Source: Candidatus Aenigmatarchaeota archaeon (GTDB lineage: Archaea > Aenigmatarchaeota > Aenigmatarchaeia > QMZP01 > QMZT01). From it: a stretch of DNA of 64,000 nucleotides. Shown here one piece after another: positions 6,211 to 46,498 of the stretch; position 1 is the stretch's first letter, and each line of letters begins with the position of its first letter. The stretch lies in the NCBI GenBank assembly GCA_963726265.1, contig CAVSBQ010000002.1, positions 224,001 to 288,000 of the forward strand, read 5' to 3'. Position numbers and translations under genes: made by a program. The notes below the pieces were generated by a model that was given only the letters and a program-made list of their open reading frames with translations, had not been told where the DNA came from and made no database searches.

Positions 6211-6276
6211 AGGGGGGCTACTGCAGAAATTAGCGATATGCTTACTAAAATATTCTTTTTATTATAGTAATTAAAA

Positions 6277-13926: not shown

Positions 13927-14009
13927 AGGATGGCTGTTCGGAGGGGCTTTTGGGCCTTCCCTCCTGGGGCTTTCAACCCGAGGTTAAATCCCCAACGGTT
14001 CTTAGTCCT
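13927..14009 (+). ncRNA. Candidate structured small RNA (three-way junction)
   Basis: GC-rich island in an AT-rich spacer with stems GGCTGTT/AACGGTT, GGAGGG/CCCTCC, TGGGG/CCCCA and AACC/GGTT; TATA-like sequence upstream and T-rich tract downstream. Confidence 0.4.
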
Positions 14010-14081
14010 GGATCTTCTTTTTCTCTTTTACAGGGTACACGTAAAAATCAATTTATAAATATGTACCCCCTAATTATACAC

Positions 14082-29613: not shown

Positions 29614-29661
29614 AACTAAATGTTAAGCGAGCGCTCTTATATTGGTTTAATGCCGCCCGGA

Positions 29662-30804
29662 TTACTCCTCAATGACGAGGGAGAAGCCGTCGCTGAAAAC
29701 GCTTTTCCTTATCTTCTTCAGCTCCACCTTTTTGCCCGTCATGCCTGAGATGATGCCCGACAGCATGGCCCTGAACATGACGAATTCGACTTCGTCCGCC
29801 CACTCGTTCCACGGGAAAAAGCCCACGGTGATTTTGTATTTTCCACCTTCCGCGGACGCGAAAAAATCGCCGAAGCCGAAGCCCGGGAAAAGGTCCTTTA
29901 TGAATTTGCACGGGTCCTGCTTATCGAATTTTCCCGAAAAGGCTTTCCCCCAGGCGAAGCTTGTCCGCCACAGCAGGTCGAGGCCTCCGGGAAGCTTTTT
30001 CAGGCCCATCTCGAGCAGATACATCACCGATGACTCCAGCAGCAGGAAGCGCTCGTCCTTGTAGGTCATGGTGCCATGGGCGTATTTTATGAAGCCGGCA
30101 TCTATGATCGTCTTCAGCGAGTTCTTCGCGAACTTCGAGGTCCTTACGCAGTTGATGTTGTTGTACTGGGGCAGTCTTATCGAAAGGTTGTCCAGCCTCC
30201 CCTCGCTGAAGCATTTCATCCTTTTTTCTGCGAAATAGTCCCTGGGCGCGCACACCACTTCGCAGAAGGCGTCCTGCCTGCCCTGGCATTTCGTCTGAAC
30301 CCCTTCGATATTCATGTTCTGCACGACGTATGCCCATATCCCGGCTATCGAACCCTCCGTGAGCAGGTGGCCTATGCCGTTCCTGCTGCAGACTATGTAA
30401 TCGTTCATGGAGAGCGTGAAAAGCTGCCTGGCCATGTCTATTTCATGCGTCATCTTGGACGAGTATATGCTCTCGATGTATCTCACGACGAAATAGGCGA
30501 ATTTCAGGAAATCGCCTTCAGACGACTCCTTTATGGTGGGAAGGTGCGACGCCGAGGCATAGCGGTAGCCGAATCTCTTGCCTATCGAATAAAGGAGCTG
30601 CCTGCCTTTTTCTGCGTGCTTCGTCACTATGCCCTTTTCAAGCTCGGCGAATATGCCCTCCGGGATCACGACTTCCCTGAGGTTCGTGATGGCCTTCTTC
30701 TTGCCGATCTTGAGGACGATGAAGCCGGGCCTGTCTATTATTTCGTTCCTTGGAAGAAGCACGTTCCTTATGAACCAGGATACGGTCGCGTCTTTGATTG
30801 CCAT
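29662..30804 (-). CDS. Tandem V4R-like domain protein
   Basis: LYSIGKRFG...GSIAGIW...EGVQTKCQGRQDAFCEV, then a second repeat (GFGFG...RAMLSGIISG). Confidence 0.6.
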   Translation of the reverse strand: MAIKDATVSWFIRNVLLPRNEIIDRPGFIVLKIGKKKAITNLREVVIPEGIFAELEKGIVTKHAEKGRQLLYSIGKRFGYRYASASHLPTIKESSEGDFLKFAYFVVRYIESIYSSKMTHEIDMARQLFTLSMNDYIVCSRNGIGHLLTEGSIAGIWAYVVQNMNIEGVQTKCQGRQDAFCEVVCAPRDYFAEKRMKCFSEGRLDNLSIRLPQYNNINCVRTSKFAKNSLKTIIDAGFIKYAHGTMTYKDERFLLLESSVMYLLEMGLKKLPGGLDLLWRTSFAWGKAFSGKFDKQDPCKFIKDLFPGFGFGDFFASAEGGKYKITVGFFPWNEWADEVEFVMFRAMLSGIISGMTGKKVELKKIRKSVFSDGFSLVIEE

Positions 30805-30838
30805 GGACAGCACCTGAATCTGCCGGATGCGCCGGGAT

Positions 30839-31672
30839 TCAGGCCCCGATTATAGTTAGGAAAGAAAGTATAAAAAACAGGAAAACGAACTCGCCGTCGA
30901 CGACCAGGCCGTAAAAGAAGCCGTCCTTTTTTTCCCCTGCGCTGCGGGTGTAGAAATATATGTAAGCGAGGAATGGGACAAGGACCAGCGCACCCACGGG
31001 CAGGACCCTGAGGAAAACCGAGGAGACAAGGACGACTAAAGCGAGCGCGTTCGCGGCATGGCATACGGTCCTGGTCTTTTCTATGCCCAGCCTTATGGGT
31101 ATGGTCCGTATCTTCGCGTTCGAGTCGCCTATCACGTCCTTGACGTCGAATATGACCGTGTTGACAAAGAACGCGATGGCGAAGAACGCCGCCAGCAGGA
31201 AGAATCCCGGGCCGAAAAGATTGTTGTAAAATCCCACTAGCAGCGGCGTCAGGCCCCACGAAAGGCCCACCAGCGCGTTCTTGAAAAAGAAAAGCCTCTT
31301 CAGCCTTTTTATCGAGTAAAGCGAAGCTATGGCGCCCGGCAGCGCGGCGACTAGCAGGACGTGCCATCCCCTCATGGAGGCGAGGTAAAGCGCTCCCAGA
31401 TACATGGCCGAACTGATGACCATGAGATAGAAGCCGTGCTCGCTTATGAACCTCCTCCTCTCGGGCACGTTTATGATGTCCTCCTTGTCGTCCGTGTGCC
31501 TGTTGAGGTTGTAGATGAACATGCCGCCAGCGAAGGGGATGAAAAGCAGCGCGGGCTCGAAGGGCAGCTGCATGACGAAAAGCGTGAGCCATGCCACCAC
31601 CGAGGCCCCGAAGGAAAGGTAAATGTTGCTGTGGACGAGAAAGCGCAGGCTTTTCCTTGCGAGCCTTATCAT
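30839..31672 (-). CDS. UbiA family prenyltransferase
   Basis: YNLNRHTDDKEDIINVPER; NTVIFDVKDVIGD...IRTIPIRLG; multiple TMs. Confidence 0.9.
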   Translation of the reverse strand: MIRLARKSLRFLVHSNIYLSFGASVVAWLTLFVMQLPFEPALLFIPFAGGMFIYNLNRHTDDKEDIINVPERRRFISEHGFYLMVISSAMYLGALYLASMRGWHVLLVAALPGAIASLYSIKRLKRLFFFKNALVGLSWGLTPLLVGFYNNLFGPGFFLLAAFFAIAFFVNTVIFDVKDVIGDSNAKIRTIPIRLGIEKTRTVCHAANALALVVLVSSVFLRVLPVGALVLVPFLAYIYFYTRSAGEKKDGFFYGLVVDGEFVFLFFILSFLTIIGA

Positions 31673-31752
31673 AATTAATAAATTTGAGCCCGCCCTCTTA
31701 AATATCACGGTTTTGGCTGCGGCTTTGGCTGCAGAAAGTTTTATTGCTTTTA

Positions 31753-32501
31753 TCACGCGGGTCTTCGCGTCCCGATTTTGGAAGCTGGAGTGGCTTTCCT
31801 GGAGCGCCTGATGACCTTCCTGGTCTCAGGCTTCGTTGCCGCCTTTGTTTCCGCTCTTTTTTCAACTAGAGCTGCAGGCTTCACCTCTATGTACTGGAAG
31901 TTGGTGGGCGGCGTGGCGGCTGCGGGCTTCACCTCAGCTTTAACCTGCCCTTTAATTTCCTGTTTTGCCGCAGGCTTCACTTCTTGTTTCAGTTCCGCCT
32001 TCTTCGCCTTCTCCGCCTCCATCGCTCTCATAAGCATTTCCTTTATCCTCGCCTTTTCCATGCCGAAGTAGCGCTCGAGTTCCTTGGTGGCCATGAGCTT
32101 TGACGTTCGCCCTTCTTTCTCGGCTTTTATCAGCCCTTTTTTGCGCAGGAACTTGACGTAGGCATAGGCTTTGTTGCCCTGGATGTGGACGACCTCGCTC
32201 TGTTTTACCGGCTCCTTATACACAACCAGCGCTAACGTTCGTTTATGGCCGTCCTTCAGGTCGGAGTAAGGGGTCAGGTGCGCGACCTTCGGGAGGACGT
32301 CCGGCTTGACCCGCATGTGCCAGCCTTCGGGATTGGAAATCACCTCGACGCCTTTCGCCTCGTTTTCGTATTCCTTCACAGGCCTTCAAGCAGCTTCTTG
32401 ACGTTCGTCGGCGTAACGCCCGTTATCTTCGCTATCTCTTCCGCGCTCATCGGCCTCGAGGCCATGAACAGCGCCGCTTCGACAAGCTTCCTCGACATCA
32501 T
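31753..32501 (-). CDS. scpB: SMC-Scp complex subunit ScpB (frameshift near 32380)
   Basis: LVEAALFMA.RP; TLALVVYKEPVKQSEVV.IQG..AY..V..L...GLI; T.E...YFG. Confidence 0.85.
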
Positions 32502-32626
32502 AGCACCTCAAAAGCATCTGAAAACATCTTATACTATTATTGTCGGCGAAATTTTAAATTGTTCTGTCGTTGCCTATCCTTTCCAAAAAATTCTGTTATT
32601 TAAGAGTAACGTACCATAATTTAATC

Positions 32627-32785
32627 ATGGAATGGGGCTTGAAAATAGTCGTAATTGCGATGCTGCTCATAGTGTTTTTCGTGATAGTTGTCATGCTCAT
32701 GACCAGCTGGTCCGGCCAGTCCAACAATGCCGTGAACGGTATTTTCGACTTTCTCAAAGGCCTAGGAGGCGGCCAGATAAAGTGA
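32627..32785 (+). CDS. Small pilin-like protein
   Basis: MEWGLKIVVIAMLLIVFFVIVV hydrophobic pilin-type helix; own TATA. Confidence 0.6.
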   Translation: MEWGLKIVVIAMLLIVFFVIVVMLMTSWSGQSNNAVNGIFDFLKGLGGGQIK

Positions 32786-32853
32786 GCATGCCGCCACTCG
32801 CAGCCGAAGCGAAAACCAAAGTTTAAATAGGGCCTAGGCACATATTAATCAAT

Positions 32854-33150
32854 ATGAGAGAGTCATTAGAGCTTGTGATTATAGCTATTACGCTTCTTGT
32901 GGCGGCGCTAGTTGTTCTGACGATTTTTGGAAGTGGAATGTCACCTTTCGGTAACTTGACATCATTCAAAACCAACTGTATAACTACCGGACAGGTTGCA
33001 TGCACAAGCGGCGGATCAGAACCTGCAACTTGGTATCAAAAGGTCAATGTCGGCGGCGAACAAAAAAGCTGCTCAGATATAGCGACATTCGGCACATGTT
33101 GCACAGGCACACCACCAAAATGGAATAGCCAATCATCTGGTTGCGCTTAG
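32854..33150 (+). CDS. Pilin-like protein, Cys-rich head
   Basis: MRESLELVIIAITLLVAALVVL; NC...G..AC; paralog of the next gene. Confidence 0.7.
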   Translation: MRESLELVIIAITLLVAALVVLTIFGSGMSPFGNLTSFKTNCITTGQVACTSGGSEPATWYQKVNVGGEQKSCSDIATFGTCCTGTPPKWNSQSSGCA

Positions 33151-33186
33151 TCTTCTATTTTTATATGGTTTTGTCAATTATTACTC

Positions 33187-33564
33187 ATGAGACTTTCTCT
33201 TGAAATCACGGTTATTGCGATTGTTCTACTGGTGATAGCTGCGGTGCTCATAGGCATTTTTGTGACGGGCGTAAACAATGTAAGTCCTTACACAGATGCC
33301 AGGGCCAACTGCATCAATACCGGCTTCTCAGTATGCAAGTCTATGGGAGTTCTGCCGCCCATGTGGTCGACACAGACATATATTTACAATGGCCAGCAGC
33401 AGACATGCCAGCAGATAACCGGATACAATGACTGCTCTCCTCTCGGCATCCCGAAGTGCTCCGGAACATGCAAAATCAGTTGTGACCTGTCGACAGAAAA
33501 GGAAATACCATCGACCCAGGGCACTTGCACCATTGGTCAGATATGCTGCACGAAAAAGGTTTAA
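33187..33564 (+). CDS. Pilin-like protein, Cys-rich head
   Basis: MRLSLEITVIAIVLLVIAAVL; C-terminal GTCKISC...C...ICC motif. Confidence 0.7.
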   Translation: MRLSLEITVIAIVLLVIAAVLIGIFVTGVNNVSPYTDARANCINTGFSVCKSMGVLPPMWSTQTYIYNGQQQTCQQITGYNDCSPLGIPKCSGTCKISCDLSTEKEIPSTQGTCTIGQICCTKKV

Positions 33565-33570
33565 ACCTTT

Positions 33571-35783
33571 TCAAGAAGGCCACGTTATTGCTCTATCTCT
33601 GCCGACTTCTGTCAAGAAACCCGTCCCTGCGCCCAAGAATAAAAGCAGGTATGTTGGATTTCCTTGAAAACAAGCAGCGATCGCGAGACCAGCGCTGGCG
33701 GCTCTTCCTGCCCACGTGAGTACAACCTGTCCTGTGCTAAGGTATCTGACACAATAGTTATTACCTTCAACATCAGTTCTTTTGCTTCCCATCCCTGTCA
33801 AATCAATGGTAATGCCGTCTATCATACATTCGCCAACACTGATGCTTTTTGTTGCAAAGGTCTCATCACCGATTTCTTGCATGTCATTATAAATCAAATA
33901 ATTTTCGTCGGCATAAACGCCTATCTCATCATATTTTCCATTGAGGTCATTGTCTCCGATAATCCAAAAACATTTGTTTGGCCAGTCGCTAACAGCGTCG
34001 CCTGTTTTTTTGCATTTATCATTGTTTATCCTAAACAAAACAAACTCAACCGGTATGAAATCCGTAGTTACTTTGCTCCTGTTAATGAATATGGTAATGT
34101 CGTCCAGGATGTTGGCCGCATCTTGCTGAACTCCTGGTGTTTTTTTCAGTTCATCTGTTGAAAAATAGCAGGGAGATATTTGTTCAGTTCATTCTCAGGT
34201 ATGCCGATAAAATATAATGATGATGGTGGGAGGCCTAAATCATAACATTTCAAAGGTATGTCTTCAATGATTTTTTCTTCAAGGTTTACACCACCTGTGC
34301 TCAAATCAACATCGTGGTAATCAAAATAATAATAAGTGAAGTAGCTGTTGCTCGTATCTACTTTTTTGAACAAAAGATATGTTTGCCTGTTTTCATTTAC
34401 CTTTCTTAAAGGCAGGTAAATCTTGCCGACAGCCTCTACGCTTTGGTTGTTTGTTTCGCCGAACAGATCCTTGCTGTCATCTTTTGACAAGGCCTCCAGA
34501 ATGTCAAAGACGTCATAACCTATATAACTGTTCACAGAATCTTTATCGAAATTATTACATATGTGGTATTTTGCATTGTTGCCTATACTATCTGGATCGG
34601 CGCATGTTGTCGATCCTGTGTTTGGGTCATACACATACTTTTCACACAAGAAATTGTTTTTGGCTACGTCGAAATTACTGAGATAGCATGGTGAAGCCAT
34701 ATGAAAATTTTTCTCCACTGTTCCTGCTTCCGGTTTCCATTTCAGTATAACCGGTTTGCCCTCGAGCTTGCTGTCAAGATTAAATTCTTCCTTCTCCTCG
34801 AAAGGCGATTTTAAAATAATTTTATTTCCGGATGGTATGTATTTTGCTGTGTCACTCGAGTAAAGAGCTAAAGCAATTGCCGCAGTTTCCATCGTTGCGA
34901 ATCTTTTTCCTGTTTTCGTTATAAATTGCGTCAGGCCATATTTTTCTATCCTGTCCGTGATTATTTTTTTAATAGCTTCCTCTTTTATATATTCGTTTAG
35001 GATTTGGGTTCTGCCTTCGTATTTTATGGCATTTTTAACCAGCTTTTTGACTCCTTCTTCACCCATTTTTTCTATTTCCTCTTTAGCAGCCTCTTTACTA
35101 AGTTCAATCCCAGCTTTTTTTGATAGCATCTGTACCACAAATTCTTCGGAGGGCTTTATCAGCATGGCTGCATCTCTTTCACCACAAACCCGGCAATTTT
35201 AGTTGGCGGTATCAAAGAAACCAGAGCGAACATAAGATGCACTTTCCAATTGCTTTGTAAAGTCCACGTATCTTCATCGCTTGGGAATACATTCCAATAT
35301 GTAATAAACGCAGATCTCCATAATATGGTATCCAGTCTTCTTTCTTTGAAATGTCCTGAGGAAGTTTAAAATTTTTGACAGTGCATCTTGTACTCGTTGT
35401 TTCAATCCCGTTACACTCTACGCTAGTTTCTCCGATGCTGTAATTTTGGCTAGCCGTTCCTGAATTAATGCCATTTGGCTGCTCAGATGATGTTGCCGTC
35501 GCGGTTGCTGTTTTAGAGTATTTTGTATTCAAACCCGGAACATTGGTCCTCATTTGTTGAAACGGTGTTTATGGCGCAAGTCAATGCATCGACAGATGCC
35601 TTGAGAGGTTTCATAATATGCCATTGTATTAGTTTTCTTGCCGAAAAGCTTGTCCATCTGCTTCCCAAACTCACCAAGAAAGCCGCTCTGGCTGGCGATG
35701 CCGCCTATTATTATGATGGTAAACAGCACGACAAGAACCATTCCAATCGGCGTTTTCAAGAAATCTTCTTGGCCCTTCCTCAT
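33571..35783 (-). CDS. Large class III signal-peptide surface protein (about 730 aa, several frameshifts)
   Basis: MRKG|QEDFLKTPIGMVLVVLF N-terminus, followed by contiguous same-strand fragments 35212-35553, 34146-35165 and 33571-34038. Confidence 0.6.
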
Positions 35784-35886
35784 AATTAATAATTGATATT
35801 TGATTTATATATAATCAAATAAAAGCGATGGCTGATTGGCGAATCTGGTTTCAAATTTAATAAGCAGGCCGCTTAAAATATTAAAT

Positions 35887-35997
35887 ATGAAGGCATTCTC
35901 CCAGCTTCTGACCGGAGGCATGATAACCTTTTTCATGGGTGTGGTAGTTTTCGTCATAATGGCGCTGCTTGCCGCGAAATGGCTGGGTTATATATGA
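35887..35997 (+). CDS. 36-aa pilin-like micro-protein
   Basis: MKA|FSQLLTGGMITFFMGVVVFVIMALLAAKWLGYI*; absent from the ORF track; first gene of the operon. Confidence 0.55.
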   Translation: MKAFSQLLTGGMITFFMGVVVFVIMALLAAKWLGYI

Positions 35998-36007
35998 GGT
36001 GCTATGC

Positions 36008-36205
36008 ATGAAAAAAGGTCAGACTCCGGACATGCTGTTCTGGTTTGTTACAATACTCATTGCAGTCGGCGTTGCTATAGTGCTTACCCTTTTCTTCGTA
36101 AATACGTCAAAGACCTTCGACAGGCCTTCGGAAGAAAATCCGCTTATACAGAATGTTGCGCCGTTGGTTCTTTTGATGTTTTTTAAGCTCAGAAAACAAA
36201 TATAA
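36008..36205 (+). CDS. Pilin-like protein
   Basis: MKKG|QTPDMLFWFVTILIAVGVAIVL. Confidence 0.7.
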   Translation: MKKGQTPDMLFWFVTILIAVGVAIVLTLFFVNTSKTFDRPSEENPLIQNVAPLVLLMFFKLRKQI

Positions 36206-36209
36206 GTTT

Positions 36210-36779
36210 ATGAAAAGGGGTTCTCAGAGTTTGATAATCTTCACTGCCGTGGCTGCAGTTTTTATCGTTCTTGCATTGGTTATAGGTAACAGATGGTTTA
36301 CGTATTTGGTCAATGGCAAATGCGTTTCAGACACACTGAGGGACATCGATATCATGACAGACCAGTTCAAGAGTTCTTCAACGGAATGGCACGCAATAGC
36401 TATAAGGATGAATGACTGATACAGCGGCGTAGTCTTCGCTAACGGTCAGCAATGGAAGACCGTTACAGAGCTAAAGGGTATGAAAGAGGTGAAATGCAGC
36501 GATGATGCGGACGCACACATATTAATCTTCAAGAGGGATATAGGGTTGGTGGAGGCAATTAAATCAAGGAAAAAGTACTGGCTGCTGTGATTGCACGTGA
36601 TGTAACTTTGAGGGATGTATACGGCTATACGTTTTTTACCAATATGCCGGGAGGGGTTCTGGCAGGCTCGGGGTAAAGGATGAGTCTCTGATTTATTGTC
36701 TCGTATTCAGGATAGATCAAAAAAACAAGGGAATAGAAATAACCAAATGGGAAACTGTCAGCGCAAAGGAGAAATGTAA
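36210..36779 (+). CDS. Pilin-like protein (in-frame TGA at 36417 and later frameshifts)
   Basis: MKRG|SQSLIIFTAVAAVFIVL; the frame continues YSGVVFANGQQW... after the TGA. Confidence 0.55.
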
Positions 36780-36791
36780 AATTTGATTACG

Positions 36792-37997
36792 ATGAAACTC
36801 AAGGGCGACATACCCGGAGAAAGGATGATGATTTTCATTGGCGTGGTACTCATAGGCATGCTTTTTCTGACCACAATTATTCTGCAAACGCTTACGCCAA
36901 ACCTTAAATCCAGCGAGGAAGCAAGATTCTCCCTATTTCGCGCACACCATTGCTTCATATATAGGGATGTTGTCGAGCGTTGAAAGCGGCGTGGTGGAAA
37001 GGGACTTCGAGGAACCGGTAGACATACAAATCAAAAAATATACATGGATAGGAACGTTGACGCATATGAGACAGAGGCCCGCCGTCTATTATGTAGAGGT
37101 TCGTTTACAGGAAAGGGGATCAAAAAAGCAAAAAGATGTTCCCTGACATGACAAATTGCGAAGTCGACTGCCTCAACGAGAACTGCAAATGTGAAAGCTG
37201 TTCTGAGGGTGAATGCACCATTGTCTCTCTTGAAAAATCGACCACCAGCGAGGCCGTTCCTTTCATAGGTTTCGTTGACACGGGCAGTGAAAATTCAATT
37301 AACATAACAGGCATGAGATTCGTATCGCTCCGAAAAGATTCGTCTTCCCAAAGGCGTCAAAATCGGCAAAGTCGAGATAAGTATCTTTTTGTACAGAGCC
37401 CTCTGAAAGCGATATTATAAACGTAATAGACAGTTACTGCGCTAAATACGGCCTTGACAAGAATGTCGTGAAGGCGCACATAACAGCCGAAACCGGCTTC
37501 AAGCATTGCGGCCCTGAGGGAGAAATTATAGGTTCAGAGGCCGGTGCCCAAGGAATAATGCAGCTTTTGCCCGCAAACGGCAAACGAAATGGCCACAAAA
37601 TACAACGAGAATATAGATTACCGGAACCCTCTCGACAACATAAAGGCGGGCATACTTTATCTTTACGACAGAAGGATGGTGATGGAACAATACACGCAAA
37701 GGGAGGATCTTGACAGGGTGATGGTCGCCAGTTATAACTGCGGCAAAATAGTTGAACTGGTTCAAAAAAATCTGCAATAAAAACGAAGCCGGATGCTGGA
37801 GCAATGTGGAAAAATACATAAATTCCAAAAACCCAGAGGGAACATACTGCCAGGGGGCGAATGGTGATGAAACTTATAACCATGTGAAAAAGGTTTTCGA
37901 AAAGTATAAGCCTTGTTTCGAAAACAACCCCACCTGTTATTTCGCGTGTTTCGGCTCGTCGTGTGCGGCTAGATTGTGGGAGGTTACGGTAAAATGA
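36792..37997 (+). CDS. Pilin-like protein fused to a soluble lytic transglycosylase (SLT/GH23-like) domain (multiple frameshifts)
   Basis: MKLKG|DIPGE.. plus TM; then KYGLDKNVVKAHITAET, GAQGIMQLLP, PLDNIKAGILYL, ASYNCG and ETYNHVKKV in order across frames. Confidence 0.8.
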
Positions 37998-38422
37998 AGG
38001 GAGACTACGAGTTTCTGAACATAACTTTCGCATTGATCATATTCATGGGCACAATAGTGCTGATTGTGCTGATGATAAGGGGCAACATACTAAGCTTCAG
38101 CGGAGGCGTGGCCTCCGATGTGACTCAAATAAATGCAATAGAAGCTTCTCACATGGTTGAATATTGCTTCACAAGCATGGAAGGCGGCGACTCGGAGAAC
38201 ATAGCAACCACGCTTCTTGACAAATACAACGGCAAGAGCATCGCTGAGATATGCAAAATAGACAAGCCGGAGATAAAAGTTGAGATAATAGACATGGAAA
38301 ACGAGAAAAAATGGAGCTTCGGCACAGTTTCGAAATCGAATCACGAAATATGGGTTTCAATAATTTACGAAAATGCAGGCGTTAAAAGTGTAAATATGGG
38401 GAAGATGAATGTCGAAATATAG
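37994..38422 (+). CDS. Pilin-like protein
   Basis: MKG|DYEFLNITFALIIFMGTIVLIV; ATGA overlap with the preceding gene. Confidence 0.7.
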   Translation: MKGDYEFLNITFALIIFMGTIVLIVLMIRGNILSFSGGVASDVTQINAIEASHMVEYCFTSMEGGDSENIATTLLDKYNGKSIAEICKIDKPEIKVEIIDMENEKKWSFGTVSKSNHEIWVSIIYENAGVKSVNMGKMNVEI

Positions 38423-39404
38423 CGGAATGGTCGACACCATAGTCCTCGTTGTGATAGCTGCGGCACTGCTTGGGGCTTTTTTCATATTCATTCAGATAAA
38501 CAACTTCATAGGCATAATAAAAATAAAGGGAGAGGTTGATGTTTACCTGAACATACAGGATCAAGGAACACAACTGCTCAGTTTCCTCAAATCCCAGAAA
38601 AGCGGCACTAACTACATGGGAATGCTGGGTTCATATGCGGCAAAGGATACACCGGATGAATATGACAAAGAAATAACTTCGACATTGCAGAAGCTTGGAG
38701 ATTATGACCTTTTCGTCCAAAATCAGAGCCAGGAAATAATAAAGGAATTCAAATCAGTAAATTCACCAGCAGGCGGACAGAATATAGGTGTTGTGATAAA
38801 ACTTGACTGGCCGTTGAAAAATCACAATACGATAAACAACGGATACGGATGGAGGGATCTGTCTGGCAAAAGGGATTTCCATGGAGGCCTGGACTTTGCA
38901 GTCACGGAAGAAGAAGTTTATTCCGCATACCCGACTGGTAAAGTCGTAAGGATGGGCAAGGGGTGTGAACCGTCACCAAATGTCTGTGCTAATGTCGATT
39001 CTTGTGCTACAAGTAACGATCAGTATTGCTGCTGCAATAGCGGCCTTGGGAATTTCGTTGTGATAAAGCACGAAATTAGCGGAGAAACTTTCTACACGCA
39101 TTATGACCATCTTAAAGAGGTTTACGTCCACATGAATGACGAAATAGGTAAGGATATAATGCCAGACCAGCCTATAGCGAAGTCAGGCAATACAGGGTAT
39201 ATACAGGGGGAGAACGGCTATCATCTTCATTTCGAAATGAGCAAGAGCGAAATTAAAAGCGATGACGCCTCCATAGACCCTTGCATCTATTTCCCACAGC
39301 CTGTGCCAGTAAACTGCGAACAGGAATCGCATCGGCCTGCTGGCCTTTCGGTTGATATACCGCTTCCTAATGGGCAGGTTGGAGAGGTATCGTTGATAAC
39401 ATGA
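38409..39404 (+). CDS. Pilin-like protein with inserted M23 (LytM) metallopeptidase domain
   Basis: MSKYSG|MVDTIVLVVIAAALL; WPL...GYGWR..FHGGLDF (HxxxD), GNFVVIKH, YDHL, SGNTG, HLHFE (HxH). Confidence 0.88.
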   Translation: MSKYSGMVDTIVLVVIAAALLGAFFIFIQINNFIGIIKIKGEVDVYLNIQDQGTQLLSFLKSQKSGTNYMGMLGSYAAKDTPDEYDKEITSTLQKLGDYDLFVQNQSQEIIKEFKSVNSPAGGQNIGVVIKLDWPLKNHNTINNGYGWRDLSGKRDFHGGLDFAVTEEEVYSAYPTGKVVRMGKGCEPSPNVCANVDSCATSNDQYCCCNSGLGNFVVIKHEISGETFYTHYDHLKEVYVHMNDEIGKDIMPDQPIAKSGNTGYIQGENGYHLHFEMSKSEIKSDDASIDPCIYFPQPVPVNCEQESHRPAGLSVDIPLPNGQVGEVSLIT

Positions 39405-40150
39405 AAAAAGCACAAGGCGCGGTTTTATTGGCAATAATGTTAATAGTAATTACTGTAATAATAATAAGCAGCCTTCAATTTTACTTGTCCAGCAGCATAG
39501 AAAAAAAATCAGAACTCCAATTCGATGAAGACCTTTATGTAACCGAGAATGCACTCAGGCTATCCAAGCTTTATCTGGAAACGGCCCTAGATTACTCTGT
39601 TTATCAGGCAATGTTTGATGCAGGAAAGGATGGTCTACCTAAAAACATCGATGACCTGAAAGGTAAACTCGCGTCTAAAATTTCAGAAAACATGAAAAAA
39701 TACACGGAAAGGGAATTTAACTTCATAGGGAAAATAGCGAGACTTCCGACCTACGATAAAAATATGCTAACGATAGAAAAATTCGGCGAAAACGATTTAA
39801 ACGTTTCAGCCACAGGAAACGGTAATATTTATTTTGAGGAAACAACAACCGTGCAAATGGAGAAAAAATACATAAGACTTGAACTTTCGTCGTATCTGGA
39901 AAGAATTTACAGTTTCAATTTCTTTGGTCTTTATGAAAAAGCGCTGGAATTCTCGAACAAAATAAACGAGTGCGAAGACGAAAAGATAATCGACGGTATT
40001 TATGAGATTTCATTGGCGACGGACCAAAACAAAAAACCATGCAATGTCAAGGTTTCGGTTAAAGACGTCTCCCAAACCTTCCCCGTCTTCAACGGCAGGG
40101 AGGTTGCCTTCGAACCGGTCGTTTTCGAGTTCCTTGTGAGCGTCGCGTGA
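39401..40150 (+). CDS. Pilin-like protein
   Basis: MKKA|QGAVLLAIMLIVITVII; ATGA overlap. Confidence 0.7.
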   Translation: MKKAQGAVLLAIMLIVITVIIISSLQFYLSSSIEKKSELQFDEDLYVTENALRLSKLYLETALDYSVYQAMFDAGKDGLPKNIDDLKGKLASKISENMKKYTEREFNFIGKIARLPTYDKNMLTIEKFGENDLNVSATGNGNIYFEETTTVQMEKKYIRLELSSYLERIYSFNFFGLYEKALEFSNKINECEDEKIIDGIYEISLATDQNKKPCNVKVSVKDVSQTFPVFNGREVAFEPVVFEFLVSVA

Positions 40151-40338
40151 GGCAGGCCGGAATATTTTATTGCCGGATTATTTTTGCACGCCCCGAGTAG
40201 TTAAAACTTTAAAAGCCAGCCTACAATTTATAAGTACGGCCAAGCTGATTGGCCAGCAGATGACAGCCAAAAGAGGCGAAAAAGCGGAACAGACTATTAG
40301 AACGAAACAACGACTGAGAAATTTAGGAGGTGCTTAGC

Positions 40339-40698
40339 ATGGCAGAAGAAAAGAGGGAAGCAAAACACGAAATCAGGGAAAACAGGCAAACCGAGGCAAG
40401 AACCGAGAGAACGGAGAGGCCGAGGTCAAGGGCGGACGACAACGTGGTATTCGTAGGTAAGAAGCCGACGATGTCATACGTCCTGGCCGTGATAACGCAG
40501 TTCTCCGAAGGGAGGAATGAGGTCCACATAAAAGCGAGAGGCCGCTCGATATCCAGGGCAGTCGATGTCGTGGAAGTCGTGAGGAACAGGTTCGTCAACA
40601 ACGTCAAGCACTCCATAGAGATAGGGACGGAGAAGCTAGTGGCCGAGAACAACATGGACATAAACGTCTCCACGATTGACATAAAACTCGTGAAGTAA
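40339..40698 (+). CDS. albA: DNA/RNA-binding protein Alba with N-terminal charged extension
   Basis: [16 protein letters not shown]...[22 protein letters not shown]...VSTIDI; AGGAGG ribosome-binding site. Confidence 0.95.
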
Positions 40699-40824
40699 TC
40701 AACCAAGCAGAAAAAAAGCGGAAGTTGCCTTTTTCTTTTATTTTAAAGCTTTTTCAGAAAAAGCTTTATCAAAAATCTCGCTTCCTTCCACGAAGGCTTA
40801 AGCGAAACGTGAAAATAAAAGAAA

Positions 40825-41006
40825 TGCGGGAGCGGAGAATCGAACTCCGGAAGGCACTAAGCCACAGGATTTCCTAAAGGGCTTAATCACAGGTCAGAAG
40901 ACCTCATAACCTAAGCCGAACAGACTTAAGTCCTGCCCCTTCAGCCCAAGACCACTTGGATGTACCATTCAGGTGGTCATGCGCTTGGCCACTCGGGAAC
41001 CCCCGC
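40825..41006 (-). tRNA. tRNA-Leu(TAA) with two introns: D-loop (40941-40984) and 37/38 (40871-40924)
   Basis: The spliced product GCGGGGG TT CCC GAGTGGCCAA|A GGG G CAGGA CT TAA G|A TCCTG [variable arm] CGGAG TTCGATT CTCCG CTCCCGC A folds as a class II tRNA; BHB helices GGCC/GGCT and CTTA/TAGG. Confidence 0.9.
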
Positions 41007-41056
41007 AATTAGAATTAATTAATCTGGTATTAATAAAAAGCAGGTGCCGCCAGCGC

Positions 41057-42172
41057 TCACTTCAAGAACTTGTCTATATGTTTCCTTGCATGCTCGCGCT
41101 TCCTCGCGTGGTCGAGCAGGAACGCCTCCATCTTTTCTATGAGCATCTGCTTGAGCTCGCCTGAGAGCATCTTGCCGGATTTGTAGTCGTCGTATATCTG
41201 CTGCATCTTTTTGTCGTCGGGCTCGAACTGTGAGTAGAGGTATTGGTAGGCGACGTCGACCTCCGGGACGCCTCCTCGCTTTCGATGCTCCGCCAGCGTG
41301 TCGCGGCCGCCGGAGAAGGCGTATTTCATTATCTTGCTCCTCGCCGTGTCAGGGTCGTCGGTGAGCGCGATGTAGGAATACGGGTCGGAGCTGGACATCT
41401 TGCCGCCTTTCAGGCCCTTGATGAACGCATGATAGGTTGACGACGGCGGCGTGAACTTGTGCTCCTTTTCGAAACGTGACGCGATGTCCCTGCTCAGGCG
41501 GATGTGCGGGTCCTGATCCACGCCGACCGGCACGACTACGTGCCTGTAGCCGCCGAATTCCGGCAGCATGGGGTGAAGGATGTCCGCGACCTGCGTCATG
41601 ACGGACACGACCTTGCCCGGCGTGATTTCGCCGTATACTGCTTTCATCTCGTTGAACGTCACCTTCTTCGCCGACATGCCGGCGAGGCGGTAAAAGGCGT
41701 TGGCCTGGTCCGGGTTTTTCGAGCGGGCACTCTGGAAGTAGAAGTCGCAGTTATTCGGCTCGAGGCCGAGAGCGATGTAGTTGAGCAGGTATTCGTTTAT
41801 GGCGATTTCGCGCAGCTTCTCCATGTCGTCTATGCGCATGTTGTAGGCCTCGATGTCCGCGACGCAGATGAACACCTTCGCGCCAAGCGTCTTCTGGTGG
41901 TAGATTATCTGTTCGGCAAGGATTTTGTGGCCCAGGTGGAACTTGCCCGAAGGCATGAGCCCCGTCATCATCGCGTAGCCTTCCTTCCTCTGGAGCGCGT
42001 CGAGAATCTTGTCGAAGTCTCTGTGTCCGAACACTATGCCACGCCTCATGAGCAGGTGAGGCTCCTTCATGCGCTTGAGCAGCGGGGCGAAAGGCTGGAT
42101 ACCGAATTCGTCACAGAGCTTGCCGTAATCCTTGACCTCGAACGAGCCCCATGGATTGATTTCAGTCTTCAT
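41057..42172 (-). CDS. trpS: Tryptophan--tRNA ligase
   Basis: PSGKFHLGH, PVGVDQDPH, KMSSS, AFSGGR. Confidence 0.96.
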   Translation of the reverse strand: MKTEINPWGSFEVKDYGKLCDEFGIQPFAPLLKRMKEPHLLMRRGIVFGHRDFDKILDALQRKEGYAMMTGLMPSGKFHLGHKILAEQIIYHQKTLGAKVFICVADIEAYNMRIDDMEKLREIAINEYLLNYIALGLEPNNCDFYFQSARSKNPDQANAFYRLAGMSAKKVTFNEMKAVYGEITPGKVVSVMTQVADILHPMLPEFGGYRHVVVPVGVDQDPHIRLSRDIASRFEKEHKFTPPSSTYHAFIKGLKGGKMSSSDPYSYIALTDDPDTARSKIMKYAFSGGRDTLAEHRKRGGVPEVDVAYQYLYSQFEPDDKKMQQIYDDYKSGKMLSGELKQMLIEKMEAFLLDHARKREHARKHIDKFLK

Positions 42173-42233
42173 GCAATCGCCACAGATAATCTATATTTTG
42201 ATTCGTTCGTATATATTTCAAACGCTTCCGCCG

Positions 42234-43538
42234 TCAGAGGCCCAGCACCTCCTGATATCCCGGAAGGTCGAGCAGGCCGTGGCCGCTCAGGTTGAATACA
42301 AGCGTCTTCTTCCTGCCCTCCATTTTCGCTTTTAACGCCTGGTCAATCGCCGCTTTCACGGCGAAATTGGATTCGGGCGCCGGAATGATGCCTTCGCTTC
42401 TCGCGAAAAGCCTGCCTGCATCAAATGTTTCCCTCTGGTTATACGTGACTGACTTCACTATTTTTTTGTTAACGAGCAGACTCAGCGTGGGCGCGCAGCC
42501 GTGGTAGCGCAGGCCGCCCGCGTGTATCGCGTCGGGAATGAAATCGCAGCCCAGCGTGCACATCTTCAGCAGGGGCGTGAGCTTCCCCGTGTCGCCGAAG
42601 TCGTATTTGTAATCGCCCCTGGTCATGCTCGGCACGGCGTCCGGCTCGACTGCGATGAATTCGCATTCGCTTTTCCCCGCAAGCTTTTCGCGGATGAAAG
42701 GATACGCGAGACCGGCGAAGTTCGAGCCGCCTCCCACGCAGCCGATTATCACGTCCGGCTTCTCGTCAATCTTCTGCAGCTGCTTCTGCGTCTCCAGCCC
42801 TATGACGGTCTGATGCATGAGCACGTGGTTCAGCACGCTGCCGAGCGAATAGTTCGCTTTTTCATCCTTCGCCGCGACTTCTATCGCCTCGGAAATCGCG
42901 ATTCCCAGTGAGCCAGGCGTGTCCGGCATCTGCGCGCGAATCTTTTTGCCTATCGCTGTCGTGTCGCTCGGAGATGCTACTACGTCTGCACCGAAGAGCC
43001 GCATGAGCATCCTGCGGTATGGTTTCTGTTCATAGCTCACGCGCACCATATAAACCTTGCATTTCAAGTCCACGAAAGCGCAGGCCATCGACAAGGCAGA
43101 GCCCCACTGGCCTGCGCCCGTTTCCGTCGTGAGCGTCTCCACGCCGGCTTTCGCCGCATAATACGCCTGGGCGAGCGCCGTGTTCGGCTTGTGCGAGCCG
43201 ACGGGCGACAAATCCTCGCGCTTGTAGAAGATACGCACGTCATCGGGCAGCTTCAAAAATTTCTCAAGCCTGGTCGCCCTGCACAGAGGACGAGGCCTTC
43301 CTATCTTCAGAAAAAGTTCCCTCAGTTCATCGGGGATTTTCACAAAGCGCTCTTCAGCGAATTCCTGCCTTATCAATTCCTTGCAGAACAAAGGCTCCAG
43401 CATTTCCGGCTTGATTGGCTCGCCATTCGCCGGATTCAATGGCATCGGCAGCGGCTCGGGCAGGTCGGGCAGGATGTTATAGAAGTATCTGGGAAACTCG
43501 CTTTCCTCAAGCTCGACCCTGTAGCCAGAGCTGGCCAC
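42234..43538 (-). CDS. trpB2: Tryptophan synthase beta chain, TrpB2 type
   Basis: [63 protein letters not shown]. Confidence 0.95.
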
Positions 43539-43586
43539 CTGTGTTTTTATTTTCGCTCGAATTTTCTTTTCTCATACTCACACCTC

Positions 43587-43793
43587 CTAAACCTGTATTT
43601 TATGCGGGTTCTGCATTGCCAGCATTACCCTCAGGGCGCGCAGTTCCTGCGCGTCTGTCACCGGCTGCATGTTGCCGCCATCAGTTCCCGTGTAAATCCC
43701 CGTATCCGTCAATACCACCTCACGCCTTTCATACATTCCGGGCGGCCTGTAGCCCATGACCTTTATCACATTGCCTATGCCGTTGCTTCTCAT
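43587..43793 (-). CDS. Small hypothetical protein
   Basis: MRSNGIGNV...; GGAGG ribosome-binding site; ATGA overlap with the upstream HTH gene. Confidence 0.55.
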   Translation of the reverse strand: MRSNGIGNVIKVMGYRPPGMYERREVVLTDTGIYTGTDGGNMQPVTDAQELRALRVMLAMQNPHKIQV

Positions 43794-44125
43794 GCGTCCA
43801 CCTCCTTTTGAAGATTTTCGAGTATTATTTCCCCGATTTTCGTGATTTTCAACGGCTTCCCGCGGCCGTTCTCCACGAGCCCCAGCTCCTTGAGGCTGTT
43901 GACGTTCATCCACACCGTCGATTTCGGGCAGCCCATGGCGCAGGAAATCTCATCCACCGCCGAAGTAATCGTCCTCGAGCCGTCCTGTTCTGCCAGCATT
44001 CTGAGTATCTCCATCTTCCTGCCCCTGAGCACTTTGCCAGAAAGCATGACCACCGCGTTGAGAACCTCGTTCACGCTTACTGCGCCAGAATCCTCTTTCA
44101 GCCCGGAGAGATAGTTGAAAATCAT
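43790..44125 (-). CDS. Winged-HTH protein
   Basis: TITSAVDEIS..MGCPKSTVWMNVNSLKELGLV...PLKITKIG. Confidence 0.75.
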   Translation of the reverse strand: MIFNYLSGLKEDSGAVSVNEVLNAVVMLSGKVLRGRKMEILRMLAEQDGSRTITSAVDEISCAMGCPKSTVWMNVNSLKELGLVENGRGKPLKITKIGEIILENLQKEVDA

Positions 44126-44411
44126 CCCAAAAACCCTTTTTTCCTGAAGTTGCTTCAGGTTATGTCTCAGAAATGGGATGAAGTTTTAGAGCCTGATCCA
44201 AAACTTCATCAAACGATAGAACATGCCGGCGATGCCGTGGGCTGAAAGAAACGACAGTTCGCTTCCGGACATCGCTGCGTTTTGCATGAGTATAAATATG
44301 AGGCTCAATTCTTATAAACCTTGTGTGCAGGATTTTCTGGAGTCTACGCTGCGCCCGCTTCGCCCGGCCGCCCGGCAAAGGATATTTAACGGCCAAAACG
44401 AATTATAAAAC

Positions 44412-45101
44412 ATGAAAAAAAGGCCTCGCAGGAAGAAACCAAGGAAAACGAAGAAAGGGCAGGAAAACGAGCTGCGGGACATCTTCATAGAAAGCCTTTC
44501 TTTCAAGGAGCTCGTCACCTCCGCGATAGAGGTCTACAACAGGGAGACCAACGGCGTGCTGCTGGGACGGAGGACTTTCAAGGAGATAAAGGGGGAGAAG
44601 AAGAAAGTAATCTCGATAAAGAACGTCTACCCGTTCCAGATGGAGAGGCGCACGCCCTCCGAAGTGACGCATGGCAACATAGCCGCTTTCAAGAGGGTTT
44701 TGCGCACGATCGACTCCTTCGACGCGGAGATCGTCGGCGGCTACCATTCGCACACGCCGCCGTACGACGTCGTCCGCCTTTCGCGCGGCGACATAAAATC
44801 GATAAAGGAAGACATCGAAGCGATGCTCAAGATAGGCCACAGGAGGCTCGCGAAGGGCTGGGTGGAAATCCTGCTGTCGATAAAGAGGAAGAAATACGTG
44901 AAGCCCAGCGGCAGGGAGTGGTATATCTGCGACTACATCAAGAAGCTACGCTGCTATCTCAGGACGCAGAAAAGGGTGGGTTGGGACATCCTCCTGTCAG
45001 CCTACTGGGTGTATCCCAAAAAGGCAATAGAAGGCACCAGCACCAGAAAAACCGAGTTCGGCGTAAAGGAAGTCGCAGTCTACGTCGAGTGGATTCTATA
45101 G
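44412..45101 (+). CDS. JAB/MPN (JAMM) domain protein
   Basis: RETNGVLLG...IVGGYHSH....LSRGD (E...HxH-x7-S-x2-D-like). Confidence 0.75.
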   Translation: MKKRPRRKKPRKTKKGQENELRDIFIESLSFKELVTSAIEVYNRETNGVLLGRRTFKEIKGEKKKVISIKNVYPFQMERRTPSEVTHGNIAAFKRVLRTIDSFDAEIVGGYHSHTPPYDVVRLSRGDIKSIKEDIEAMLKIGHRRLAKGWVEILLSIKRKKYVKPSGREWYICDYIKKLRCYLRTQKRVGWDILLSAYWVYPKKAIEGTSTRKTEFGVKEVAVYVEWIL

Positions 45102-45370
45102 TGGCGAAACGGGTCCGGCCTTATTTTTAGCAGAAACGGCAAGTTCCAGAAATAATCGCATTTTTCCGGAGGTTTTTTTATTGTGTTGTAATGGCGCGTG
45201 GCACCTATCATCCCGCTTTTTTTGTCTTCAGTTGGCAGTTTTTCTGCCGCGCGGCTACTGAAACAGCACTGCTCACTTTCAGGGCTCAGAGACCCGTAAA
45301 TGCATTTCGAGCAGTAGGGTTGTTCGTTTCTGAATAAACCGTATTGCCGCAGAAGGCTCTTCAGGCTCAT
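45080..45370 (-). CDS. Hypothetical Cys-containing protein
   Basis: ORF downstream of tyrS with CxxC. Confidence 0.4.
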   Translation of the reverse strand: MSLKSLLRQYGLFRNEQPYCSKCIYGSLSPESEQCCFSSRAAEKLPTEDKKSGMIGATRHYNTIKKPPEKCDYFWNLPFLLKIRPDPFRHYRIHST

Positions 45371-45415
45371 ATCTTGAATTGAAGAAAAACTTTTTAAGGA
45401 TATGCTGTTCCTGCA

Positions 45416-46498
45416 TCAGCGCGTGACTTCGAGACTGTTCACTCTTTCAAGAAGTTCTCTCGCCTTCGCATCTTTCTCGAAATGGCGCCTGACCGGCTCA
45501 AGCAGCCCGTTCAAGTGGAAGGCGGCCGCCTTCTTCAGGTCTGCCGGATGTATCTTGCCGTCCGCATACGCCTTCTCCAGCTCACTGTATTTCTCGAAGC
45601 TCAGGTTGCCGCCGAACTTGGCCGGCCTTTCGATTTCGAAGGCCCTGAACTTGCCGGATTCGAAGATTATGAACCTGCAGTATTCCATGACGGGGTTCTC
45701 CTCCGCCTGTTTTTCGGGGCAGTAGGCTTTCGTTATTTTCCGTTCGACTTCCGCAGGCGGGTCGGTCATGAATATCGCGGAATCCGGCTTCGACTTCGAC
45801 ATCTTCATGTCTATCGTCCTCTCCAGTTTGTCCTTCTCGCTGCTCGCCGGCTTGAGCAGCCCCATGAGCATGTGGTGCGAGACGACGACGGGTTTCCAGT
45901 AGCCGAGCTTCGGCCCTATCTCGCGCGCGAGCATGTTGACCTTCCTCTGATCCATGCCGAGCTGGCAGATGTCCGCCTTCAGCTGGAATATGTCCGCTGC
46001 CTGCATACATGGATAAAGGACCTGTGACGCCTGCTGCACCTCGCTCTCCTTCCTGCCCATTATCTGGCCGCAGCGGATTATGCGGTTCACCGTGGCGTTG
46101 CGCGAAACCTGCATGACCTTCTTCCAATAATCATCGTCCTTCACGAGCTCGGACGCCCATACGAATTCGACATTCCCTACGTCGAGCCCGCAGGCCTTCC
46201 AGACCTCGATCAAATATTTGCCCACGGTCTGTATGTTCTCCAGGTTGCCGCCCATCTTGTTGTTGGCCCAGCCGTGCCAGTCCGCGACCAGCATCTTGAA
46301 GCGACAACCAGCGAGAATCATCTTGTTTATGTTTATCGCGCGGAGCAAACCCTGGGCTATGTGGACCTTGCCGCTCGGCTCGAAGCCGTCATACGCTATC
46401 GGTTGCGAATTCTTTTCGAGCAGCTCGCGCAGCTCCTGCTGGGTCACGATCTCCTCGCCTACGCGCGAAACCAGTTCGATTCTTTTTTCGAGGTTCAT
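45416..46498 (-). CDS. tyrS: Tyrosine--tRNA ligase
   Basis: YDGFEPSG.VHIAQG, YPCMQAAD, GMDQRK, KMSKS, AYCP, HPADLK. Confidence 0.97.
   Translation of the reverse strand: MNLEKRIELVSRVGEEIVTQQELRELLEKNSQPIAYDGFEPSGKVHIAQGLLRAININKMILAGCRFKMLVADWHGWANNKMGGNLENIQTVGKYLIEVWKACGLDVGNVEFVWASELVKDDDYWKKVMQVSRNATVNRIIRCGQIMGRKESEVQQASQVLYPCMQAADIFQLKADICQLGMDQRKVNMLAREIGPKLGYWKPVVVSHHMLMGLLKPASSEKDKLERTIDMKMSKSKPDSAIFMTDPPAEVERKITKAYCPEKQAEENPVMEYCRFIIFESGKFRAFEIERPAKFGGNLSFEKYSELEKAYADGKIHPADLKKAAAFHLNGLLEPVRRHFEKDAKARELLERVNSLEVTR

Follow-up and report, generated by a model that had tools for sequence, protein, structure and literature searches.

Three kinds of known system come close to the locus described here: bacterial type IV pilins with an added module, archaeal type IV filaments functionalised by other proteins, and murein hydrolases encoded by archaea of the DPANN group. 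The operon considered below shows features of all three. It occupies positions 35887-40150 of a stretch of 64 000 nt (the window), that is, C2:224001-288000, where C2 is contig CAVSBQ010000002.1 of assembly GCA_963726265.1 of a Candidatus Aenigmatarchaeota archaeon (genome of 1.13 Mb in 4 contigs, 88% complete, with a G+C content, GC, of 0.52). The operon is real, probably intact save for assembly errors, present across an order and aimed at the bacterial cell wall. With a probability of about one half, we read it as the operon of a surface apparatus: some eight type IV pilin-like subunits, of which D, F and G carry peptidoglycan-directed modules, mounted by machinery of the type IV kind.

Modular type IV pilins have been described in Streptococcus sanguinis, in which PilB has a vWA module and PilC a lectin module (Raynaud et al. 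2021, PMC8179133; this and the other papers are cited for particular passages of their texts). The general plan, a pilin-type N-terminus with a grafted module that a filament machinery could present, is shared with the proteins considered here, and it occurs in many bacterial architectures, including predicted peptidases S74 and M26 (PMC8179133). The bacterial proteins have the prepilin motif IPR012902, and the module follows the pilin part (PMC8179133); here, in contrast, the proteins are archaeal and match no pilin model, the module interrupts the carrier ahead of the last hairpin, and a single operon encodes several carriers with complementary wall-directed modules. From the main text of that paper, supplementary architecture lists aside, the terms peptidoglycan, lysozyme and hydrolase are absent.

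Archaeal binding proteins with class III signals also have a pilin-like leader and a helix, and are thought to functionalise type IV machinery encoded elsewhere (PMC13705601). They bind substrates and are encoded next to ABC transporters (PMC13705601), whereas here a dedicated operon for 7-8 such proteins encodes enzymes that cut the wall and a domain that binds it; the main text of that paper, supplementary tables aside, uses none of the terms peptidoglycan, hydrolase, M23 and transglycosylase.

As for hydrolases, large extracellular SLT proteins, mainly of Woesearchaeota and Pacearchaeota, have been seen as a possible sign that some DPANN archaea interact with bacteria (10.1101/2021.01.12.426361; PMC9723730; PMC10936187). 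As here, the organisms are DPANN archaea with a GH23 lytic transglycosylase domain, and the same inference, attaching to or attacking bacteria, was drawn in the passages cited. The proteins in question (fam00969, Castelle et al. 2021) are single proteins of up to 3,000 amino acids (aa) from other phyla, whereas the carrier considered here is pilin-like, has ∼400 aa and belongs to a multi-gene operon of Aenigmatarchaeota with a second enzyme class and swappable cargo; size, phylum and gene context set the two apart. Another archaeon, Halogranum salarium, secretes the M23 and glucosaminidase peptidoglycan hydrolases Woldo and Danwoldo, which belong to the same catalytic families and were shown by experiment to kill a bacterium (PLoS Biol 2025, PMC12352652). 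They have a Tat signal, combine the catalytic domain with two PG_binding_1 domains in a single chain, are released into the supernatant, and are patchily distributed (PMC12352652). In our operon, on the other hand, the parts are split over co-translated membrane-helix proteins conserved across an order.

Type II secretion systems and type IV pili of bacteria have sets of minor (pseudo)pilins, GspH-I-J-K and FimU-PilVWXE, which are not known to include enzymes. As in the operon, pilin-like genes, here about five, stand in a row and differ in size in a graded way. One large member, GspK, has a domain inserted into the pilin fold and caps the fibre tip (PMC8179133). No sequence or fold match between these sets and the carriers was found. 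A full-text search of the literature, supplementary tables aside, returned no paper on pilin-like carriers with inserted murein hydrolases or on this operon in Aenigmatarchaeota. To our knowledge, all DPANN archaea brought into culture live with an archaeon as host, and we know of no host of Aenigmatarchaeota. The locus turns the loose idea that some DPANN archaea, having a murein hydrolase, may touch bacteria into a defined object with intact active sites and named parts (carriers, enzymes and a binding module).

Genes of the operon

The operon consists of seven closely packed consecutive genes, A-G, on the + strand. Each encodes a leader of K/R-G/A type followed by an uncharged hydrophobic stretch of ∼20 residues; below, a slash marks the end of the leader. 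Gene A (35887-35997) encodes 36 aa, with MKA/F, one hydrophobic helix and the C-terminus ..AAKWLGYI, and gene B (36008-36205) encodes 65 aa with MKKG/Q and a hydrophobic helix. Gene C (36210-36786), with MKRG/S and a helix, has a product of ∼190 aa in relatives and is broken in the assembly. Gene D (36792-37997), with MKLKG/D and a helix, is in six pieces in the assembly; its product, ∼400 aa in relatives, has a carrier part that is conserved at the N-terminal end, a stretch rich in Cys, and a lytic transglycosylase domain of SLT (GH23) type encoded at ∼37414-37780. The product of gene E (37994-38422; 142 aa; MKG/D and a helix) has no known domain. Gene F (38409-39404) encodes a 331-aa carrier with MSKYSG/M, a helix and an M23 zinc peptidase domain (∼38877-39251). 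Last, gene G (39401-40150) encodes 249 aa with MKKA/Q and a helix, and in this genome has no known domain. Stop and start overlap by 4 nt between D and E, by 14 nt between E and F, and by 4 nt between F and G.

Upstream, on the − strand, is a divergent large pilin-like gene (33571-35783) with MRKG/Q and a helix. It is in four pieces in the assembly and encodes 616-964 aa in relatives; no known domain was recognised in it, and the ESM Atlas gave no usable match. For G, the nearest ESM Atlas clusters were archaeal proteins (Woesearchaeota, Nanobdellota).

The original prediction, made from the letters of the window and a list of its open reading frames (ORFs), had named seven consecutive, partly overlapping genes with class III-like starts and a helix, one with a lytic transglycosylase domain and another with an M23 peptidase. 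All seven N-termini that it quoted are in place, and Pfam matches locate the SLT domain in D and the M23 domain in F. The seven-gene cluster is thus real, but C and D are broken in the assembly, and the divergent gene as well as two small genes further upstream had been missed.

Conservation within one order

The protein of gene F had 14 homologues with 42-65% identity, two of them annotated as M23 metallopeptidases of Aenigmatarchaeota/Aenigmarchaeota. A search for related loci with F, with one genome per species, gave eight archaeal loci, four of Candidatus Aenigmatarchaeota and four of 'uncultured archaeon'; a ninth locus, in a Clostridia genome, had only the M23 domain in common. The order B-C-D-E-F-G is kept in 8/8 of the archaeal loci, and the K/R-G/A leader with its helix is kept in all six gene families (B-G) of these relatives. 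Eight further loci with the same plan in recognisable form came from a scan of the phylum; syntenic operons, which the original prediction had proposed to look for in DPANN genomes, are present in 16 related loci. Alba lies downstream of the operon in 12 of the 16. In the closest loci, L009-L012, orthologues of gene B have 41-52% identity and an unchanged N-terminus. All four of these loci retain gene A: it has 50-56% identity at the equivalent place in L009, L010 and L012, and L011 has a similar ORF of 35 aa there. That the host of the operon is an archaeon of the DPANN group, as had been surmised, is supported by the Alba and archaeal-type tryptophanyl-tRNA synthetase (TrpRS) genes flanking it and by the assignment of four of the eight syntenic archaeal loci to Candidatus Aenigmatarchaeota.

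A word-based homologue search with residues 1-125 of F gave three matches and was too insensitive; a profile search was used instead. The profile covered the first 123 positions of the F protein, without enzyme columns, and genomes were scanned with it at E≤1e-5. One match per genome was seen in 74 of 90 other genomes of the same order (families f1, 21/22; f2, 0/1; f3, 4/5; f4, 7/14; f5, 1/1; f6, 41/47), many of the scanned genomes being incomplete. At the same threshold there was no match in 280 genomes of other families of the phylum, to which the scan was confined. The operon is conserved and single-copy in one order of Aenigmatarchaeota-type DPANN archaea.

Wall-directed enzymes and their target

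The M23 domain of F matches Peptidase_M23 (PF01551) with E = 2.7e-12 and 47.2 bits against a cut-off of 28.7. Among 14 sequences, H152, H228 and H266 are invariant, and 90% or more have D156 and H268; the HxxxD motif, the middle His and the HxH motif make up the zinc-binding and catalytic pattern of M23 enzymes. A structure model of F had a predicted local distance difference test (pLDDT) score of 78, and its M23 part matched lysostaphin 4qpb, LytM 2b13, DipM 7qrl and ShyA 6ue4 in Foldseek, with E-values from 6e-8 to 1e-7 and template modelling (TM) scores, normalised to the target, of up to 0.78 (0.72-0.78 for lysostaphin, LytM and ShyA).

The pieces of D matched SLT (PF01464) with 23.6 and 20.1 bits, one over and one under the cut-off of 21.3. 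In intact orthologues of D, SLT scored 29.9-64.6 bits in 8/8, and four further orthologues were over the cut-off. The Glu of the E-S/T motif, the catalytic glutamate of SLT / GH23 enzymes, is invariant in 13 of 13 orthologues (E234 of L010) and is found in this genome in the piece 37414-37599 (..TAETGF..). Judged by these residues, both the M23 and the SLT enzyme look active. A lytic transglycosylase acts on the glycan strand, an M23 endopeptidase on the peptide stem or cross-link.

F also has a Cys-rich insertion in its M23 domain (residues ∼176-206) with four invariant cysteines, C180, C187, C201 and C203. It is peculiar to a subgroup, being missing from the M23 domains of L031 and L034; disulfides or metal binding are candidate roles. 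Cys-rich stretches occur in D likewise.

One could ask whether such enzymes remodel a murein- or pseudomurein-like wall of the archaeon itself, making room for its own appendages. Bacterial SLT and M23 enzymes encoded beside pilus genes do make room for pili or secretion systems, among them Mpg of Neisseria, and one Mur_ligase_M gene is present in the genome. That single match, however, comes from a search that also matches two control archaea, wall-less or with an S-layer; no transpeptidase (no penicillin-binding protein) and no Amidase_3 was found in the 88%-complete genome, nor any SLT or M23 outside the operon. In addition, the breadth of the cargo described below (amidase, glucosaminidase, CHAP, NlpC/P60, wall-binding) makes up a set for attack or digestion, not a housekeeping gap-maker, and we regard remodelling of an own wall as very improbable. 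The four control archaea had no SLT, M23 or Amidase_3.

Peptidoglycan as the target, proposed already in the original prediction, is well supported, because SLT, M23, glucosaminidase, Amidase_3, PG_binding_1 and a GDSL esterase are found at the same slots, the catalytic residues are kept, and the genome is without a penicillin-binding protein. By its gene content, the operon points to bacteria as host, prey or food of this archaeon. AnmK, for the use of anhydro-muropeptides, was not found in the 88%-complete genome, a result that neither supports nor excludes feeding.

Exchange of cargo and apparent exchange of cassettes

In an alignment, the F carrier consists of an N-terminal part of ∼120 residues and a conserved C-terminal hairpin, IPLPNGxxGxVEL, with the enzyme inserted between them. 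E has the same plan, and distant relatives have an insertion of ∼100 residues before its conserved last strand (..HMGKLYVEI).

The slots differ in what they hold. SLT was found at the D slot in 13 of 15 proteins scanned, with orthologues of 335-423 aa; it is just under the Pfam cut-off in L034 and absent from L033, while L036 has only a short D-like ORF but, besides it, an SLT protein of 191 aa that begins in a similar way. The F slot holds M23 in this genome and in most loci, Glucosaminidase (PF01832) in L029 and in L030, the latter of the same genus as this genome, and nothing in L032, also of this genus, where the protein has 144 aa. At the G slot (14 proteins scanned), an inserted PG_binding_1 was found in five, a GDSL esterase with Amidase_3 in one, and nothing recognised in eight, including this genome.

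The GDSL and Amidase_3 protein belongs to L032 (G350:C3, 4262-6334, − strand), the locus with the enzyme-free F slot. It has 690 aa, and its GDSL/SGNH-type esterase, one could speculate, strips O-acetyl groups from murein. L011 has an additional, separate Amidase_3 gene upstream.

A wider census compared the carrier profile with 1.84 billion proteins, which gave 184 cluster representatives at E≤0.001. The best 150 of the 184 comprised 100 proteins shorter than 250 aa and 50 of at least 250 aa; all 50 were scanned for domains. Among these 50 carriers, 49 had peptidoglycan-hydrolase domains: M23 only in 43, SLT only in two, SLT with M23 in one, Glucosaminidase in one, CHAP in one, and NlpC/P60 with M23 and an M99-like carboxypeptidase in one. 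Nothing was recognised in the remaining one, and cargo of any other kind was not seen in the 50. In a tree of the carrier part, well-supported branches force at least five changes of state for M23 and at least seven for 'none'; the tree was made by a quick method from 124 columns, 82 of its 147 forks are unresolved, and some short rows counted as cargo-less may be fragments. At the level of predicted domains, exchange of cargo at the fixed slots D, F and G is shown; the cargo swapping that the original prediction had suggested looking for is real at these slots and in the wider carrier family. Such a pattern is as expected of a host-interaction locus.

Whole cassettes appear to be exchanged between lineages as well, at the same chromosomal place. 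In comparison with L031 and L032, two loci of the same genus, identity is 88-91% for TrpRS and 84-89% for TrpB but only 23-34% for E, F and G; in L010, on the other hand, TrpRS is more distant (79%), while E, F and G are 50-61% identical. The operon has GC of 0.43 (0.40-0.43 over the locus 33571-40150) and GC at third codon positions (GC3) of 0.44-0.54, versus 0.54 and 0.71-0.82 in the flank; in 10 relatives compared, operon GC was within 0.08 of that of the flank, higher or lower. Since the flank follows the genus while E, F and G are closer to L010, and given the gap in GC, the most economical explanation is replacement of the entire cassette, at an unchanged chromosomal site, by that of a relative of lower GC.

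Mounting of the proteins

Type IV pilins are marked by a class III signal, a short charged leader that ends in G or A and is cut before a hydrophobic segment of ∼20 residues (PMC8179133, PMC6098224). At the sequence level A-G and their orthologues have this signal. Among 142 representatives of the F carrier with at least three residues before the hydrophobic stretch, [KR][GA] was present within 12 residues before that stretch in 131 (KG 95, KA 30, RG 5, RA 1); the control, own-genome ORFs with an N-terminal hydrophobic stretch, had it in 33 of 147. Judged by these counts, the leader motif is not due to chance. A regular expression for class III-like starts, run over the whole genome, returned 342 ORFs, mostly spurious, and was dropped.

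The genome has one Peptidase_A24 (prepilin peptidase) gene at C2:446.6k. Five matches to the T2SSE ATPase exceed the cut-off, and there are four loci with T2SSF platform genes, some of them with canonical pilin genes alongside. According to a 2026 survey, ATPase and platform genes of DPANN archaea are adjacent and pilin genes are scattered away from them; in archaea, proteins that are not pilins but have class III signals may functionalise type IV machineries (PMC13705601).

If the operon encodes a surface apparatus, proteins of the A-G type would be exported, their leaders would be cut by the single A24 prepilin peptidase, and one of the unlinked ATPase/platform pairs would build from them a short structure resembling a pilus, a pseudopilus or a bindosome. 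This structure would keep the enzymes on the surface of the cell or at the tip of a fibre. On contact, the enzymes would bind and open the bacterial wall, be it to attach, to parasitise or to feed on wall material.

Several points weigh against this reading. In D and E, 6-8 partly charged residues stand between the G and the hydrophobic stretch, and F of this genome has S instead of K/R at −2; besides, a positive N-terminus before a membrane helix is also the look of a plain signal anchor. No curated pilin or class III signal model matches A-G or the divergent gene (Pfam at E≤5, NCBIfam at E≤1). A model of the cargo-less F carrier (L032, 144 aa, pLDDT 76.7) has an N-terminal helix at residues 9-63 and four strands; Foldseek gave nothing for it at E≤0.001 (best E 0.11), and VIA-align gave PDC/Cache/PAS-like periplasmic sensor domains with middling Z of 5-7.2 and no pilin among its best 50 rows. 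The genome does encode the pilus machinery for which the original prediction had suggested a search, but in none of the loci examined is the operon linked to genes for an ATPase, a platform protein or a prepilin peptidase, and no major pilin can be named for it. Profile comparisons of carrier with carrier were weak (D and E, 57% probability over 75 columns; other pairs, the signal only or nothing). Both a living bacterium and wall debris would fit as the substrate. As to the predicted role of the proteins as minor pilins on a drilling filament, the pilin models and the 50 fold rows do not bear it out, while only the N-terminal motif and the machinery encoded elsewhere speak for it. Profile-profile similarity being weak, we do not claim that the carriers are paralogues.

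Some of these points would be equally at home with a signal-anchored ectoenzyme complex, in which uncleaved type II membrane anchors form a cell-surface 'murein degradosome' that acts on contact or on debris, independently of any filament. It would account for the lack of pilin model matches, for a carrier fold like that of membrane-anchored periplasmic sensor domains (membrane helix, long helix, sheet) and for the lack of linked assembly genes, and all evidence on the peptidoglycan target fits it equally well. A plain anchor, however, needs no G or A directly after K/R, and yet this is what 131 of 142 carriers have, against 33 of 147 control ORFs; the motif, moreover, is present in all six gene families of the operon. 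The products of A (36 aa) and B (65 aa) are little longer than a leader and a helix, and it is difficult to see them as enzymes or as anchors. With 7-8 such proteins of graded size, the operon also resembles minor-pilin sets, which counts against an anchored complex, and we consider the latter possible but doubtful. Concerning the mounting of the proteins alone, we put a fibre at about one half and a plain membrane-anchored complex at about one third.

Within the surface-apparatus reading, a more specific version can be offered tentatively: a contact organelle derived from a type IV filament, whose tip subunits would be hot-swappable carriers of murein hydrolases and of a murein-binding module, with cassettes traded to match the walls of bacterial hosts. 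If this were true, these archaea would be cross-domain parasites or predators of bacteria, and the operon would encode the first defined molecular apparatus for an interaction between a DPANN archaeon and a bacterium. If the surface apparatus is real, the concepts of the 'modular pilin' and of the 'functionalised type IV filament' would extend to enzymes in archaea. The wall chemotypes that are cut, the processing of the leaders, and the bacteria that co-occur with each cassette can all be tested from the locus.

Another explanation is that the operon encodes bacteriocin-like peptidoglycan hydrolases released for competition, with the N-termini serving as mere export signals. There is a documented case of an archaeon whose M23 and glucosaminidase enzymes kill a bacterium, and the same catalytic families are present here; on the other hand, the Halogranum enzymes, in the passages cited, have Sec or Tat signals and tandem wall-binding domains on one chain, and weaponised hydrolases have a patchy spread (PMC12352652). 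In our operon the binding domain and the enzymes reside on separate co-translated carriers with a retained hydrophobic helix, which argues for a held-together, cell-bound assembly, and the locus is near-universal and single-copy in the order; released weapons are thus improbable.

Two canonical-looking archaeal pilins with ..K(E)KA/QSAMEYL.. and a helix were seen elsewhere in C2. One is encoded in the window at 15022-15486 (− strand) and matches the UpsA pilin weakly (E = 0.004); the other, at C2:831348-831554, adjoins a pair of T2SSF platform genes. Either may be the major subunit of a filament system of this genome.

Frame transitions in the assembly

Gene C has an in-frame stop at 36417-36419 and two frame changes in the assembly, and gene D has five frame changes. 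In L009-L012 no frame change separates the pieces of C or those of D, and a single ORF of 397-423 aa spans D. We compared the assembly with contigs of two short-read metagenome runs of freshwater sediment, X1 and X2, from two studies. X1 was >99% alike for 12 of 16 contigs and may be the source sample of the assembly; X2 was mostly 95-99% alike. The two runs agree against the assembly on indels of 1-2 bases at nine sites, and X2 alone, where X1 has no cover, adds 37575 and 37771, so that the list comprises at least 11 sites. In the divergent gene the indels are at 34175, 35177, 35312 and 35527; in gene C, the read contigs have one base inserted behind 36564 and one behind 36669; in gene D, they have one base dropped at each of 36927, 37350, 37378, 37575 and 37771. 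Over 6.9 kb, X1 differed from the assembly by 21 substitutions and at least nine indels.

When the 11 indels were applied in silico, the divergent gene became one frame of 701 aa. Gene D became two parts of 120 and 285 aa, with a break near 37140 remaining; gene C was still split, with the stop at 36417 remaining. The broken pieces are 48-80% identical to relatives, compared with 50-61% for the intact E, F and G.

Genes elsewhere in the assembly are frameshifted too in comparison with intact orthologues: a surface protein of ∼800 aa in relatives (∼27310-29613, − strand), a gene for ∼170 aa (∼32000-32400, − strand) and one for ∼254 aa (C2:1059361-1060117). The pieces of these three are in two or three different frames, versus a single intact orthologue for each. 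Since the read contigs show indels at the break sites, the orthologues are intact, the pieces are as conserved as intact genes and other genes are frameshifted as well, we conclude that the breaks in C, D and the divergent gene are probably consensus errors of the assembly. An alternative genetic code as the cause of the breaks is disfavoured by the different frames of the pieces and by the indels in the read contigs.

That the locus is decaying or foreign DNA, be it a pseudogenised remnant, a bacterial, phage or mobile insert, or a misassembly, might be suspected from the broken genes C, D and divergent gene and from GC of 0.43 against 0.54 in the flank, but it is hardly credible, as two runs from two studies agree on nine indels at the break sites (with two more in X2), the 11 indels fuse most pieces, the broken pieces are as well conserved as the intact genes, other genes of the assembly share the defect, no tRNA gene in 28000-46000 and no repeats flanking the locus were found, and the operon lies at the same place in 16 related archaeal loci, a synteny that excludes the bacterial or phage misassembly considered in the original prediction.

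X2 contigs depart into unlike sequence at 34025, 35054 and 39438, which is strain-level variation inside the locus, and X2 alone has a 6-base in-frame deletion at 34873.

Neighbouring genes and base composition

Two tandem genes on the + strand (32854-33150 and 33187-33564) encode small Cys-rich proteins of 98 and 125 aa with MRxSLE and a hydrophobic helix. They are without a K-G/A leader, and a stop codon lies 10-13 codons upstream. At least seven relatives (L011, L014-L016, L031, L032 and L034) keep one or two such small genes beside the operon. These proteins could be leaderless pilin-like subunits or plain anchors, and their membership in the apparatus is uncertain.

Downstream of the operon, Pfam matches identified Alba, an archaeal-type TrpRS and a TrpB-like enzyme. 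Further stretches of low GC (0.31-0.43, compared with 0.52 for the genome) were observed in the window at 2185-6894, 13950-15008, 17221-17901 and 55340-59889.

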